This document shows, in pieces, positions 16,142-20,644 of a stretch of 64,000 nt of DNA. Below the pieces are notes generated by a model. That model was not told the DNA's origin. It made no database searches and saw nothing but the letters and a program-made list of their open reading frames with translations. This stretch comes from Zoogloea sp. Lineage in GTDB: Bacteria; Pseudomonadota; Gammaproteobacteria; Burkholderiales; Rhodocyclaceae. Made by a program: the position numbers and the translations under genes. The first letter of the stretch is position 1. Each line of letters starts with the position of its first letter. The stretch lies in NCBI RefSeq assembly GCF_041911615.1, contig NZ_JAYROR010000089.1:2131-66130 (forward strand), written 5' to 3'.

Positions 16142-16169
16142 AAAAAAGCGGCTCAGGCCGCTTTTTTTT
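16142..16169. terminator. Bidirectional intrinsic terminator
   Basis: A6-GCGGC-TCAG-GCCGC-T8 between convergent grxD and nucleotidyltransferase genes. Confidence 0.85.
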
Positions 16170-17277
16170 CGCCTTTAGGCAGCGTGACCTGCTCGGTGGA
16201 TAGTGGGTGGGTCGGCTGTTCGGGCGGGAAGATCGCCTTGTGGGCCAGGTGATAGGCGAGCAGCAGCGGCGGCATCCGCAGCCAGTGGGCGCGGATGTAG
16301 AGGCTGCGGCGGGCGAGCGGGGTCAAGGCGTCGGCGGTGCTCGGATGTTGCGGGCGCAGCACACGGGCGTAGATGCCGTCGAGGGCGCGCTGGCCGATGC
16401 CGCCGCGCTCCAGGCAGCGGCTGCGGGCGATCACGGCTTCCGGCAACGGTGTGTCGAGCAGGCTGCGGCAGTAGCGCAGTGCGAGACGCAGCGGGCCGGC
16501 GAGTTGCAGCCGCTCGGCGCGGTCGAGGAGCTGCGTCCAGGCGCCGTCGTCCTGGTCCAGGTGACGGAGCAGCAGATCGAGGTCGGTGAGATCGCGCAGC
16601 AGGTTGTCCGGTTCGCCCTCGTGGAACAGGTGGGAGGCGCTGTGCAGGATCAGGTCGGGCAGCGAGAGGGTGCGCACGCCGGGCAGGTCGGGCAGCGGCA
16701 CGCTGGCGTCGATCAGCAGCCGGGCGTCGGGCTTGAGACGGGCGGTAGGCGGCAGGATGGTGTGGTGCACGTCGAGCGCCGAGCCGCGGAAGACGTGGCG
16801 CATTGCGGGCAGTTCGTGCATCCAGCGGCGATAGTAGCGCTGGTCGTAGGCGTCGGTGGCGGTGCTCGCCCAGCCCTTGAGCTGCAGCGCCGATTCGGCG
16901 TCGGCGAGGCGATCCTTGGGTAGCAGGATGTCGATGTCGGAGAACAGCCTTCCTCGGGCCGCGGGTAGCCCGGCGGCCACGTAGGCGGCACCCTTGAGCA
17001 GGATCACCGGGATGCCGGCGGGTGCGAGTGCTTCACGCAGGAAGCGTGCTTCGCGGCGGATCGCGTGGCGTTGTTCGCCGGCCATCACCGCGCCCGAGAG
17101 CAGGTGGTTGCGCGGCCGCTCGGGAATCTCGGCTTCGAGGCCGGCGGCCTGCAGGCGCAGGAACAGGCGCCCGAGCAGATTGGCGTGACGGGCCTGGCGT
17201 ACCAGCAGGTCCCAGTCGGCGGCGCCGAGCTGGCGGATCGAGTCGGGCTGGCGGTAGGCGCCAAGCAGCAGGTTCAT
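16153..17277 (-). CDS. Uncharacterised nucleotidyltransferase family protein (NTP_transf_5-like)
   Basis: Start MNLLLGAY overlaps the kinase stop (ATGA); ILLKGAAY...RLFSDIDILL DxD motif; LDVHHTI; DLILHSASHLF...LRDLTDLDLL. Confidence 0.82.
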   Translation of the reverse strand: MNLLLGAYRQPDSIRQLGAADWDLLVRQARHANLLGRLFLRLQAAGLEAEIPERPRNHLLSGAVMAGEQRHAIRREARFLREALAPAGIPVILLKGAAYVAAGLPAARGRLFSDIDILLPKDRLADAESALQLKGWASTATDAYDQRYYRRWMHELPAMRHVFRGSALDVHHTILPPTARLKPDARLLIDASVPLPDLPGVRTLSLPDLILHSASHLFHEGEPDNLLRDLTDLDLLLRHLDQDDGAWTQLLDRAERLQLAGPLRLALRYCRSLLDTPLPEAVIARSRCLERGGIGQRALDGIYARVLRPQHPSTADALTPLARRSLYIRAHWLRMPPLLLAYHLAHKAIFPPEQPTHPLSTEQVTLPKGEKKAA

Positions 17278-18191
17278 GCGCCGGCCTCCGTGGCGAGACG
17301 GTCGAACACGGCGATGGCGTCGTCGAGCCGGCTGTATTCGAAGCTGTAATTGTCGCAGCGGTCGGTGGTGGCGCCGACCGCCGCGAAGCCGCGCGGACCG
17401 AGCACGTGGTAGTTCATCGCGTTGTCGGCGAGCTGCATGAAGGCGGCGCCGCTGCCCATCGGGGTCAGGACGGCTTCGCTGCCGGCACGGTAGCGGGGTA
17501 GCACCATCCAGCGCGGCTGCGCCCATTCGCCGACGGCGTCGACGCTGGCCCGGGTGGGGGCCATCAGCGCCACGGTGCCCTTCGTGGTGTCCTTGACCGG
17601 GCGGGTCAGGAAGGCATCAGGGGCGTAGGCGCGGATGATGTCGATGCTGGCGTTCTTGAGGTTGACCGGCCGGGCGAGGCCCATGATCTCGCCGGTGTCG
17701 AGGCGGATCAGGGTGAGTTCGTCCGACAGCAGGCGCCAGCCGCGGTTGACCAGCGCAGCGCACAGCGTGCTCTTGCCCGAACCGGGGGGCGCCGGCAGGA
17801 TCGCGGCGTGCCTGCCGCGGGCGACGCTGGCGGCGTGGACCACCAGGATGTGATGGCTGTAGGCGGTGACGCACCAGTTGAGACCCCATTCCAGCATCGC
17901 CAGGGCCTGGTTGCGGGGCAGCGGCGTGAAGGGCTCGACCGCGTCCACGACGAAGCGGGCCTGAGGCGCCAGCCAGCGGCGCAGCCCGTGGCCGGGCCGG
18001 ACGGCGACATGGAAATCGGTGAAATCGGCAGCGTCCACAAGGCGGTGGTGCGCGTAGAGCTGAGCCAGTTCGTCGGCGATTTCGGGGATGCCACTTTGCA
18101 GGCGGCAGTTGAACGGGCCAGCCGCCAGCCGCAGGCCGTCCCCTGTCAGCCGGGCGCGAAATTCGGCCGGGGAGAGGTCACGGATTTTCAA
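17274..18191 (-). CDS. HprK-related kinase (HprK-related kinase A type)
   Basis: VVHAASV, P-loop PAPPGSGKSTL, GWRLLSDE; lacks the DRTGG N-domain of true HprK. Confidence 0.85.
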   Translation of the reverse strand: MKIRDLSPAEFRARLTGDGLRLAAGPFNCRLQSGIPEIADELAQLYAHHRLVDAADFTDFHVAVRPGHGLRRWLAPQARFVVDAVEPFTPLPRNQALAMLEWGLNWCVTAYSHHILVVHAASVARGRHAAILPAPPGSGKSTLCAALVNRGWRLLSDELTLIRLDTGEIMGLARPVNLKNASIDIIRAYAPDAFLTRPVKDTTKGTVALMAPTRASVDAVGEWAQPRWMVLPRYRAGSEAVLTPMGSGAAFMQLADNAMNYHVLGPRGFAAVGATTDRCDNYSFEYSRLDDAIAVFDRLATEAGA

Positions 18192-18510
18192 GGGCGGGGC
18201 TCGATTCGACGCGGATCAGGTGGGCCTTGACGAGGGCGTCGAGGGCAATCGCGACGAGGCGCTGGCAGTCTTCGGGGGCTGCGTCGGGTTCTTCGTGCAG
18301 GATGGCGCGGACGAGATGCTGCCCGGTCAGGCGGCGGCCGGGAACGGTCAGCTGGTCGAGCACGAAGCGGGTGAGCGGGGCGAGCAGCAGGGTCTCGCCG
18401 GCGGATGGATCGTAGCGGACCCATCCTTCATCGACTTCTTTCCAGAGTACTTCGGCCAGCCCTTCGAACAGGGTTTCAGAGGCGATGTACGACGTGCCGG
18501 CCGTGAGCAA
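18178..18510 (-). CDS. PqqD/RRE-like peptide chaperone (HPr-rel-A system type)
   Basis: About 110 aa; WVRYDPSAGETLLLAPLTRFVLDQL and terminal LDALVKAHLI fit the PqqD beta-hairpin/helix pattern; directly upstream of the kinase. Confidence 0.72.
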   Translation of the reverse strand: MLTAGTSYIASETLFEGLAEVLWKEVDEGWVRYDPSAGETLLLAPLTRFVLDQLTVPGRRLTGQHLVRAILHEEPDAAPEDCQRLVAIALDALVKAHLIRVESSPALENP

Positions 18511-18528: not shown

Positions 18529-19101
18529 TCAGGGGTTGGCCAGCACGTAATCCAGGTATTGCTCGACCTGGGACGCGGTCCAGGCGATGCTCGGCACGCT
18601 GGGGTTCGGCACGAAGTGATTGCTGACGATGCCTTCGTTCCACATGCGGATCGCGGTGGCTTCGGTGAACAGCGAAGGGCTGGCCTTGGCGCTGAGCCAG
18701 GCAGCGATGATCTTCTTCTGGAGCGGCGAGCCGCTGACGGTGAGAACCTTGCGGATGCTGTCGGTGACGGTGGAGGAGAACACGTCGCCGAAGTTCTTGT
18801 TGTCCAGATCGTCGATGACGTTGGGCGGATTCGGGTTGGCGGCGGCGTAGTCCTGCCAGAACTTGACGCCGTTCATCTTCGGCGAGCAGGGCGTGGTGCC
18901 GTTCTGGCTCAGGTTGCCGGAGGCCGAGAAGCCGGAGGGTTGCTTGCACTCGGCCGCCAGCGCGGGAACGCTGGTGAGCGCCAGCAGCACGGGGGCGCCG
19001 GCGAGGCCGGTCTGGATGAGCTTGCGACGGGTTGCCTGGGGTGCGGAGCTGCTGCTGACGTGTTGCGGCTCGGCGGTTTTTTCGGAGTGTTCCAGCTTCA
19101 T
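18529..19101 (-). CDS. Hypothetical exported protein with twin-arginine-like signal and Ser/Gly/Cys-rich mature N-terminus
   Basis: TRRKLIQTGLAGAPVLLALTSVPALA|AECKQPSGFSASGNLSQNGTTPC; high-GC3 codon usage; RBS-like GAGG upstream. Confidence 0.75.
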   Translation of the reverse strand: MKLEHSEKTAEPQHVSSSSAPQATRRKLIQTGLAGAPVLLALTSVPALAAECKQPSGFSASGNLSQNGTTPCSPKMNGVKFWQDYAAANPNPPNVIDDLDNKNFGDVFSSTVTDSIRKVLTVSGSPLQKKIIAAWLSAKASPSLFTEATAIRMWNEGIVSNHFVPNPSVPSIAWTASQVEQYLDYVLANP

Positions 19102-19211
19102 CCTAAACCTCGTTGAACTGACGCTCCGGGGGAGCGCGGTTGAGTGCAGTATAGGCGGGCCCGTTTTGCGGCGGTGTGACGTGGGTCCGCTTTTTGGTCA
19201 AAATAGGCAAA

Positions 19212-19226
19212 GCAAATTTTGTTCCG
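19212..19226 (-). promoter_or_regulatory. Putative sigma54 (-24/-12) promoter
   Basis: Minus strand CGGAAC-AAAAT-TTGC gives exact GG-N10-GC spacing in an AT-rich intergenic region. Confidence 0.5.
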
Positions 19227-19309
19227 GATTTTTGGGCTCGTTTTAGGATTCTGATTCTAAAGGAAATAAAGTCCAACGGAGAAAACCGCCGGCAAAATCG
19301 GCAAGCATG

Positions 19310-19340
19310 TGTAAAAAATGCCGACAAAATTGGTGTCGGC
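19310..19340. promoter_or_regulatory. Putative enhancer-binding-protein sites
   Basis: TGT-N11-ACA (19310-19326) overlapping a perfect inverted repeat GCCGACA-N7-TGTCGGC (19320-19340), about 85 bp upstream of the -24 element. Confidence 0.4.
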
Positions 19341-19352
19341 GCAGGGCGGAGG

Positions 19353-20633
19353 TCAGACGCTGGCGATGCGGCTGTTGGCGAGCGACAGCCGGCTGGCGAG
19401 GACTTCGAGAAAGCCCTTGTAGAAGTGCATCTGGCACAGGCTCGACGCGCGCAGCAGCGCGGGTGCGCGGATGGTGAGGATGCGTGTCTCGGTGACGGTT
19501 TCGACCGACGCGGTGCGCGCCCCGCGCCCGGCGGCGAACAGCGCCATCTCGCCGAAGCAGTCCCCCGGGCTGAGGGTGTTGAGCAGGTGGCCCTTCTTGA
19601 CGATGCGCAGCTCTCCGGCGATCACGTAGCAGAAGTAGTTGCCGGGTTCGCCTTCCTTCATGACCACCGTTCCGGGCGGAATCAGGCGCCATTCGCCGAA
19701 GCGGACGATCTCCCAGATCTCGATGTCCGAAAATTCACGGAAGAAATGAAAGGCGCGCAGGCGCTCGAATTTCTCGCTGTCGGGCAGTTCGCCGGGGGTG
19801 GCGGCGAGGCTGCGGTTGCGGTAGGCCTGGGCGAGGTCGTGGGAGAACTCGAGCCAGGTGGCGTAGCGGGCGGCCGGGTCGCGCTGCATGGCGCGGCGCA
19901 CGATGGCGTCGAGTTCCGGTGGAATCTCGGGGCGAATGCTGGCCGGCGGCGGCGGGGTTTCGTGGGCGATCTGGTACAGCAGGTTGACGTTGCTGCTGCC
20001 TTCGAAGGGCAGGCGGCCGGTGAGCAGCTGGTACATCACCACGCCGAGGGAGTAGATGTCGGTGCGGTGGTCGAGCGGCTGTTCTCGCACCTGCTCGGGC
20101 GCCATGTAGGCCGGCGAGCCGAGGCCGGCGAGCTGGGTGGTTTCGGTGGCGGTGAAGATGGCTGCGCCGAAATCGGAGAGCTTGATGTCCTGGCCGTCGG
20201 GCGAGACGAGCAGGATGTTGGCCGGCTTGATGTCCCGGTGGGTGACGCCCTGCAGGTAGGCGTAGTCGAGCGCCCGGGTGCACTTGAAGATGATCTCGAC
20301 CAGGCGCTCGAACGGCAGCAGGTGGCCGGGCCGGGCGAAGGCTTCGAGGGTGCCGCCGGGGACGTATTCCATCACCACGTAGGCGTCGCGCTCGTCGATC
20401 ACCGCGTCGTGGATCTGGACGATGTGCGGGTGCTGCAGCTTGCCTGCGAGGGCGGCCTCGTTGAGCAGCATGTGGTGGTACAGCGTGGTGTGGTCGGTGA
20501 CGCGCAGCATCTCGGGATGCAGTCGTTTGATGGCCACCTCGCGCTGGGCGAAAGGATCGAAGCCGAGGTAGACGACACTGGTGCCGCCTTCGCCCAGCGG
20601 CCGCCTGATCTCGTACTTGCCGATCCTTTCCAT
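19353..20633 (-). CDS. Hanks-type Ser/Thr kinase with C-terminal cNMP-binding domain
   Basis: Start MERIGKY at 20633; GEGGTSVVY, VAIK, HRDIKPAN, SDFG, GSPAYMAPE; C-terminal GDCFGEMALF...RTASV. Confidence 0.92.
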   Translation of the reverse strand: MERIGKYEIRRPLGEGGTSVVYLGFDPFAQREVAIKRLHPEMLRVTDHTTLYHHMLLNEAALAGKLQHPHIVQIHDAVIDERDAYVVMEYVPGGTLEAFARPGHLLPFERLVEIIFKCTRALDYAYLQGVTHRDIKPANILLVSPDGQDIKLSDFGAAIFTATETTQLAGLGSPAYMAPEQVREQPLDHRTDIYSLGVVMYQLLTGRLPFEGSSNVNLLYQIAHETPPPPASIRPEIPPELDAIVRRAMQRDPAARYATWLEFSHDLAQAYRNRSLAATPGELPDSEKFERLRAFHFFREFSDIEIWEIVRFGEWRLIPPGTVVMKEGEPGNYFCYVIAGELRIVKKGHLLNTLSPGDCFGEMALFAAGRGARTASVETVTETRILTIRAPALLRASSLCQMHFYKGFLEVLASRLSLANSRIASV

Positions 20634-20644
20634 GGGTGAGCTCC

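Follow-up and report, generated by a model that had tools for sequence, protein, structure and literature searches.

Which protein do the enzymes of the HprK-related kinase A/PqqD cassette act on? The cassette has been catalogued as enzyme models (TIGR04352 and TIGR04353), with its target gene undescribed. We approached this question through one locus of Zoogloea sp., in a 64,000-nucleotide stretch of DNA that we refer to as the window. The gene at 18529..19101 on the minus strand, here termed gene X, encodes a 190-amino-acid precursor in which a leader is followed by a Cys-bracketed Ser loop and an alpha-helical domain, as defined by its open reading frame (ORF), its translation and its homologues. 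Gene X is tied far beyond chance to the cassette, which encodes a PqqD-like protein, HprK-related kinase A and an NTP_transf_5 nucleotidyltransferase, and its leader and Ser loop are its best-conserved parts, in a pattern that is also beyond chance. From these sequence patterns, and by analogy with characterized kinases, we consider gene X the likely missing substrate, or precursor, of this HPr-rel-A cassette, with a twin-arginine translocation (Tat) leader that would double as the tag for the RiPP recognition element (RRE; RiPP, a peptide made by the ribosome and modified after translation). We put the probability of this reading at about 0.6.

Gene X accompanies the kinase cassette

We examined a class sample of 301 genomes and a phylum sample of 401 genomes. 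In the class sample, 21 genomes (7%) encoded a kinase above the TIGR04352 cut-off. Fifteen of these 21 carried full-length gene X on the same strand, 0.4-1.6 kb upstream, and four more showed a match to the gene X profile at the same position that was confined to the leader. Inspection found a leader-bearing gene at the last complete locus, and one further locus ends at a contig edge; a gene with the same leader therefore lies just upstream of the PqqD-like gene at 20 of 20 assessable kinase loci. None of the 280 class genomes without the kinase had full-length gene X. The co-location table reads 20/1 for kinase-positive against 2/277 for kinase-negative genomes (Fisher p = 6e-28). The kinase was found in 62 phylum genomes (15%), 42 of which had a gene X profile match, mostly directly upstream and mostly covering the leader and loop alone. 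At 16 of the 20 phylum loci with no profile match, an upstream ORF encodes two arginines followed by at least 13 uncharged residues. Under this simple filter, four phylum genomes (G337, G347, G606 and G633) had no obvious leader-bearing ORF.

A word-indexed search returned 42 homologues of gene X, the named ones being from Zoogloea sp., and an exhaustive profile search gave 1172 cluster representatives with E<=1e-3, and 298 when E<=1e-10 was required. Contigs with homologues at 33-60% identity all retain the order gene X/PqqD-like/kinase/NTP_transf_5, even where the downstream flank differs. Gene X is single-copy in its genome, and it matched no family in Pfam, NCBIfam or PHROG.

Leader and Ser loop are the best-conserved parts of gene X

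The ATG of gene X is preceded, 6 nt upstream, by a GAGG ribosome-binding site. The leader (residues 1-49; 18955..19101, minus strand) was delimited by sequence, by conservation and by the presence of the same leader type before other mature parts. It consists of a polar n-region, T-R-R-K-L-I, an uncharged h-region and A-L-A. The twin-arginine motif is T24-R25-R26-K27-L28-I29 (19015-19032, minus strand), and the h-region, G32-LAGAPVLLALTSVP-46, is followed by A47-L48-A49; the 22 residues from L28 to A49 are all uncharged, with a mean Kyte-Doolittle value of 1.59. Residues 52-72 (18886..18948, minus strand) form the Cys-bracketed Ser loop, in which C52 and C72 enclose the 19 residues KQPSGFSASGNLSQNGTTP, among them four Ser and two Thr. 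The product ends in ...YLDYVLANP, without a PEP-CTERM tail. An earlier note on this DNA had picked out leader and loop from the letters, and the translation agrees residue for residue on the twin-arginine motif, the hydrophobic stretch and the A-L-A ending at residue 49, as well as on the loop with its two bracketing cysteines and on the missing tail.

We then took, for each column, the frequency of the most common residue over 183 representatives of the gene X family. In the leader, frequencies reached 0.97 for R25, 0.98 for R26, 0.85 for L28, 0.91 for G32, 0.88 for P37, 0.88 for S44 and 0.90 for P46. In the loop they were 0.97 for C52, 0.90 for P55, 0.98 for S56, 0.98 for S61, 0.86 for N63, 0.96 for S65 and 0.91 for C72, and W82 followed at 0.93. 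Mean column frequency fell from 0.66 in the leader (residues 24-49) to 0.58 in the loop (50-72) and 0.41 in the domain (73-190). Close homologues are invariant at R25, R26, L28, G32, A36, P37, L39, L42, S44, P46, L48 and A49 of the leader, the h-region pattern being G32, A36-P37-x-L39, S44 and P46. They are likewise invariant at C52, K53, P55, S56, G57, F58, S59, S61, G62, N63, S65 and C72 of the loop, at W82 and at three aromatic residues near the C terminus. Roughly half of the family members carry exactly two Cys beyond the leader.

The two patterns singled out beforehand for a conservation check, RRxL..G...P in the leader and C..SG..SGN.S in the core, are thus the most conserved parts of the family. 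The proposal that the loop, with its four Ser and two Thr, belongs to a modifiable core needs narrowing: three Ser are conserved, whereas S59, T69 and T70 show no conservation across the 183 representatives. The set kept family-wide is C52, S56, S61, (N63), S65 and C72, and we propose S56, S61 and S65 as the modification sites. As a rule, signal peptides diverge more quickly than the mature domains they precede; a leader that is better conserved than the domain behind it inverts this norm, and the inversion needs explaining. Gene X also stands before the enzyme trio in almost all genomes with these three genes; together with the conservation of leader and loop over domain, this makes it probably the target of the trio.

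Several familiar motifs were considered for the loop and set aside. The residues before C52 read A-A-E-C, and relatives have N, T, Q, R or H before the Cys, which does not fit a lipoprotein lipobox ([LVI][ASTVI][GAS]-C). By eye, the C-K-Q-P-S-G of gene X does not match the sulfatase formylglycine motif C-x-P-x-R, and where relatives have 'ALKS', its likeness to the HPr Ser46 region is due to chance. A disulfide between C72 and the C-terminal 'GCP' Cys of some relatives was also rejected, that Cys being present in only 1 of the 183 representatives.

A constant leader precedes exchangeable mature parts

The genes found upstream of the cassette share a leader consensus of approximately S/T-R-R-[RK]-L-[LI]-K-x-G-x(3-4)-P-[VAIM]-[ILVM]-x-T-L, and what follows it varies. 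The Ser loop with the alpha domain is the majority mature type in the window's class. At least two unrelated mature types of about 170-230 amino acids occur at four other loci (L018, L025, L028 and L033) and at most loci outside the class. Two mini-precursors were also found. One (L026:778-1011, genome G076) has 74 amino acids, its core and end reading SACISCNASLI, and lies upstream of a PqqD/HprK-A pair; the other (L058:1946-2209, genome G257) has 87 amino acids and the core GGSNLSGNINC..., and is flanked by a PqqD-like gene and by an HprK-like gene whose TIGR04352 score is under the cut-off. In nearly all mature types a Ser/Thr-rich stretch and a Cys come straight after the leader.

A leader that stays constant while the core varies is the mark of RiPP precursors. 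Because the leader is kept before unrelated mature parts, the cassette would recognize the leader and not the domain, and the sequences support the view that the leader is what the cassette reads. Two variants of the leader deserve mention on their own. At phylum-sample loci outside the window's class (L060-L079) it is usually RRRRLLKGLxGxGVxVPxIxTLQ, followed by ...FGS[NQ]QAC and an unrelated domain; in family f266 of the phylum sample it reads RRRALMLGAxGASAIxSIRPALAQ...C.

The domain itself occupies residues 73-190 (18532..18885, minus strand). AlphaFold2 models residues ~75-190 as all-alpha with high confidence (predicted local distance difference test, pLDDT, >90), in keeping with the globular-looking domain described earlier; leader and loop are of low confidence, with a short helix placed at 55-60. 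The domain matched no fold in the PDB (best E 1.3), and its family has no Pfam model. Alpha domains without leader or loop occur as six tandem copies in the protein P0082 and within large ORFs of other genomes, which makes the leader and loop an add-on specific to the cassette-linked members. P0082 is a metagenomic protein of 808 amino acids in which each tandem copy begins with G-C-x-x-x-F-W and finishes with G-x-C-P.

The enzymes encoded behind gene X

Gene X and the genes for the PqqD-like protein, HprK-related kinase A and NTP_transf_5 form a unit of four packed genes on the minus strand, with an 18-nt gap between the first two, a 14-nt overlap between PqqD-like gene and kinase and an ATGA overlap between kinase and nucleotidyltransferase. 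The PqqD-like RRE protein (18178..18510, minus strand; 110 amino acids) is encoded in the same frame as gene X. It scores 19.7 bits against TIGR04353 (cut-off 35) and 21 bits against TIGR04248, likewise under the cut-off. Its model has a three-stranded sheet and three helices (pLDDT 84-94), and the best PDB matches are the leader-bound lasso B1 proteins TbiB1 (5V1V; template modelling (TM) score 0.69, probability 1.0) and 6JX3, followed by PqqD (5SXY, TM 0.64) and another RRE (8T19). HprK-related kinase A (17274..18191, minus strand; 305 amino acids) scores 375.6 bits against TIGR04352 (cut-off 200) and has an intact P-loop, GSGKST; the Pfam family ScmC (PF27840) was called on its orthologues. 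The NTP_transf_5 nucleotidyltransferase (16153..17277, minus strand; 374 amino acids; PF14907, 187 bits) carries an S-D-I-D motif; in each of the 15 other genera looked at, it is found next to the kinase. At four loci with a variant mature part (L053, L054, L055 and L057, in genomes G019, G129, G215 and G076), NTP_transf_5 is divergent and lies on the other side of the unit. Sequence searches of solved structures with the kinase and the nucleotidyltransferase gave a match to the midasin P-loop only, or nothing. Neither a peptidase nor an ABC transporter is encoded in the unit of the window or at orthologous loci, and a glycosyltransferase is not part of the conserved unit.

A cassette that brings no exporter or peptidase of its own is in keeping with export and cleavage by the general Tat and signal-peptidase systems. 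The consensus of the family, S/T-R-R-[RK]-L-[LI]-[KQR], fits the Tat motif, gene X having T24-R-R-K-L-I-Q, and at position 43 or 45 the state seen most often across the 183 representatives is a basic residue (K 0.40, R 0.40). TatC is encoded in the genome (244 bits). Judged by rule, the leader of gene X would be a good Tat signal, with its motif, moderately hydrophobic h-region, c-region Pro and A-x-A.

A proposed modify-then-export model and its rivals

From these elements we assembled a route for the gene X protein. In the cytoplasm, the RRE protein would bind the leader, probably at the invariant A-P-V-L..L.S.P stretch of the h- and c-regions, and would offer the segment just past the leader to the HprK-like kinase. 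By analogy with the kinases of linear polyphosphorylated peptides (LPPs) and of lasso peptides, the kinase would phosphorylate, and possibly polyphosphorylate, one or more of S56, S61 and S65. The phosphate may next receive a sugar or a nucleotidyl group from NTP_transf_5, in the way known from phosphoglycosylated lasso peptides. The same leader would act as the twin-arginine signal by which Tat exports the folded, modified protein; housekeeping signal peptidase I would cleave after A-L-A49, and outside the cytoplasm a C52-C72 disulfide would close the loop. Once mature, the protein would carry an anionic decoration and either reside in the periplasm or be released. It is probably linked to the floc or exopolysaccharide matrix, since PrsR and an exosortase are encoded in the organism and analogous LPP clusters lie in polysaccharide loci. 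The missing-substrate claim of the earlier note is supported as regards the link to the cassette and the conservation of leader and loop, whereas the modification step is carried by analogy with LPP and lasso kinases.

The leader is common to more than 1000 protein clusters, and a wider picture, which we offer tentatively and at somewhat less than even odds, is that it stands there for a general 'modify, then export' route: a PqqD/RRE protein might read the Tat signal, hold the pre-protein while Ser residues are modified and release it to Tat, for mature parts ranging from 11-residue cores to 200-residue domains. The route might then be the Gram-negative counterpart of the LPP pathway in Pseudomonadota that form exopolysaccharide and flocs, placing (poly)phosphate, and perhaps a sugar or nucleotide, at the leader/core junction. 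If the leader does serve both RRE and Tat, it would join RiPP leader recognition and Tat proofreading; the Gram-negative floc formers concerned are of interest for activated sludge. With a named neighbour protein and three invariant serines, the cassette is open to direct experiment.

A number of observations weigh against the proposed role of gene X. The PqqD-like protein lies under the TIGR04353 cut-off, and the [Y/W]xxP element that lasso and LPP RREs read has an aromatic residue that is missing from the gene X leader. We modelled gene X fused to the PqqD-like protein in the same frame, with the TGA read as W (P0210), using AlphaFold2 with an RRE alignment; the RRE itself folded well, and the leader had a pLDDT of ~46 with no strand docked on the RRE. 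The claim of a Tat leader holds as far as motif rules and the presence of tatC are concerned, whereas the curated hidden Markov models TIGR01409 and PF10518 stay below threshold for the gene X protein. Only 4 of 37 relatives give matches to Tat models, all sub-threshold (best E 0.008), and gene X lacks the basic c-region residue common in its relatives. Export of a polyanionic loop through Tat is an assumption of the proposed route. As to the enzymes, the characterized HprK-like RiPP kinases modify a single Ser, terminal in the peptide or third in the core, and do not act on a loop of a 140-residue folded protein. The LPP nucleotidyltransferase LppN was inactive in the single system tested (PMC13381572).

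Gene X could instead partner the cassette without being the kinase substrate. The PqqD-like protein would then be a Tat proofreading or holding chaperone in the manner of TorD, DmsD and NapD, and the kinase and nucleotidyltransferase would modify a sugar, lipid carrier or polysaccharide that gene X binds or carries outside. Co-location alone speaks for shared function and not for an enzyme-substrate relation, the cassette is found in organisms with exosortase or exopolysaccharide systems, the folded alpha domain is also found apart from the cassette, and LppN showed no detectable peptide-modifying activity (PMC13381572). However, all characterized pairs of RRE and HprK-like kinase act on the RRE-bound peptide (PMC13381572, PMC8498205), and the residues that gene X keeps invariant are serines directly past the leader. 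The alpha domain, moreover, is dispensable, being swapped for other domains or for cores of 11-40 residues while the leader persists. We regard this alternative as unlikely.

An improbable option is that C-x-x-P-S-G-F-x-S-G-N-x-S...C is an unmodified structural or ligand-binding loop, closed by a disulfide or serving as a metal or glycan site, in which N-x-S might even be a glycosylation sequon for an unrelated enzyme. Two cysteines are invariant, and roughly half of the family members have no others beyond the leader; this would suit such a loop, as would the short helix that AlphaFold2 sets at 55-60 and the conservation of N63-x-S65. Yet the loop is confined to cassette-linked members, copies of the domain elsewhere lacking it; related cassettes retain a Ser/Cys-rich post-leader segment with different mature parts; and the sequon idea meets a conserved unit without a glycosyltransferase.

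It is quite improbable that the RR leader is an RRE-binding leader only, with gene X remaining in the cytoplasm or leaving it otherwise than by Tat. The sub-threshold Tat models are what this idea would lead one to expect, and G32, P37, S44 and P46 are conserved far more than export alone requires. Nevertheless, the family consensus fits the Tat motif and is followed by 18-22 uncharged residues, a Pro, often a basic c-region residue and A-x-A. The cassette lacks an exporter and a peptidase of its own in a genome that has tatC, and conserved Cys pairs suit an extracytoplasmic protein. That the neighbouring Hanks-type kinase phosphorylates the Ser/Thr loop is scarcely credible: its gene is directly upstream of gene X in all Zoogloea-like contigs examined, but 15 other genera have no such gene within about 8 kb of the cassette, and a terminator-like hairpin and a separate candidate promoter stand between the Hanks-type gene and gene X.

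Surroundings of the unit

On the minus strand, gene X is preceded by argH (22099-20645), the Hanks-type kinase gene and a 250-nt AT-rich spacer; glutaredoxin, prmC, prfA and hemA genes also neighbour the unit. The Hanks-type Ser/Thr kinase gene (about 19353-20640, minus strand), set between argH and the cassette, encodes a fusion to a cyclic-nucleotide-binding (cNMP-binding) domain. This neighbour is specific to the lineage, and we rejected it as a member of the system, as it is not kept beyond the Zoogloea-like clade and is cut off from gene X by the hairpin. This terminator-like hairpin (19310..19340, minus strand; GCCGACACCAATTTTGTCGGC, then ATTTTTT) has the form GCCGACA-N7-TGTCGGC, and its TGTCGG..TTTTTT is kept in orthologous loci. 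It is probably the terminator of the Hanks kinase gene, separating that gene from the cassette.

A candidate sigma-54-type promoter, CCGGAACAAAATTTGCTT, lies at 19210..19227 on the minus strand. It reads CCGGAAC-N5-TTGCTT, with GG at 19225-19224 and GC at 19213-19212 (GG-N10-GC), and its GG and TTGCTT are invariant across five aligned orthologous intergenic regions. The spacer upstream of gene X contains no sigma-70-like site. PrsR (TIGR02915, 760 bits) and the exosortase are encoded on other contigs of the genome. Between the promoter element and the ribosome-binding site of gene X we also noted an inverted repeat, GCGGAC...GTCCGC (about 19150-19195, minus strand), which is present in 5 of 5 aligned orthologous spacers and could form a hairpin in the 5' untranslated region.

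Comparison with known systems

In NCBIfam/TIGRFAMs, the window kinase clearly belongs to the HPr-rel-A system (TIGR04352, HprK-related kinase A; TIGR04353, PqqD family peptide chaperone), and a PqqD-like gene stands immediately upstream of the kinase gene. The catalogue, however, models the enzymes alone: NCBIfam 20.0 and Pfam match neither gene X nor its relatives, which places the substrate gene outside the system as described. The SynChlorMet cassette likewise pairs an HprK-like protein, ScmC, with a PqqD-like protein, ScmD. The window proteins match these weakly (22.5 against a cut-off of 125, and 21 against 100), and the Scm radical S-adenosylmethionine (SAM) enzymes are absent here.

The TorD/DmsD/NarJ family and NapD are proofreading chaperones that bind Tat signal peptides, have folds unlike the RRE and oversee cofactor insertion. 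The arrangement at the gene X locus is similar in that a small cytoplasmic protein, encoded beside a Tat substrate, is proposed to hold the signal peptide until maturation. It differs in its proposed binder, which takes the fold of a RiPP RRE and is linked to both a kinase and a nucleotidyltransferase. We found nothing relevant in the searchable literature on HprK-related kinase A, on twin-arginine signals with RREs or on PEP-CTERM with HPr kinase and PqqD, and no description there of a leader that serves both an RRE and the Tat translocase.

The tailoring set of lasso peptides contains the same three protein types, namely the B1 RRE, the kinases PadeK, ThcoK and PsmK, and the nucleotidyltransferase PsmN (PMC8498205). 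Lasso kinases and PsmN-type nucleotidyltransferases yield phospho- and phosphoglycosyl-Ser, the chemistry being (poly)phosphorylation of Ser and then addition of a hexose to the phosphate (PMC8498205). The structure nearest to our PqqD-like model is also a lasso B1 protein, TbiB1. In contrast to lasso clusters, neither the gene X unit nor its flanks encode the macrolactam synthetase (C) or the B2 protease; furthermore, the residue targeted in lasso systems is a short peptide's C-terminal Ser, and the lasso leader is no export signal.

Among characterized systems, the gene X cassette comes closest to the Bacillota LPP pathway (Popov et al., Nat Commun 2026; PMC13381572). LPP precursors of 35-200 amino acids combine a conserved N-terminal leader with variable C termini. 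A discrete RRE serves an HprK-like kinase that puts up to four phosphates on core Ser3, which sits right after the leader cleavage site; the leader is cut by a signal-peptidase-I-type enzyme that requires presentation by the RRE, and the clusters, which also encode an NTP-transferase of unknown action, lie within polysaccharide and biofilm loci (PMC13381572). The gene X locus resembles this pathway in having an RRE, an HprK-like kinase and an NTP-transferase encoded beside a precursor gene (LppN being alike by type), and in its leader/core logic, with the candidate modified Ser a few residues past a signal-peptidase-I-type site. The leaders also share a P-x-V/L element: gene X reads L-A-G-A-P-V-L-L-A-L-T-S-V-P, with P-V-L in common. 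Unlike the gene X cassette, LPP clusters bring an MsbA-like exporter and, as LppS, their own SipW-like signal peptidase I of archaeal type. Gene X also lacks the motif of LPP leaders, YxxPxVLxHQxIxFETxxS, its own leader being of the twin-arginine type, and the host of gene X belongs to the Pseudomonadota, the LPP paper mentioning neither Tat nor Proteobacteria (PMC13381572). Gene X, finally, encodes a folded protein of 140 residues with three invariant Ser in a Cys-bracketed loop; should our reading of it be true, the LPP discovery of 2026, made on small Bacillota peptides, would extend to folded proteins that Gram-negative floc formers secrete.

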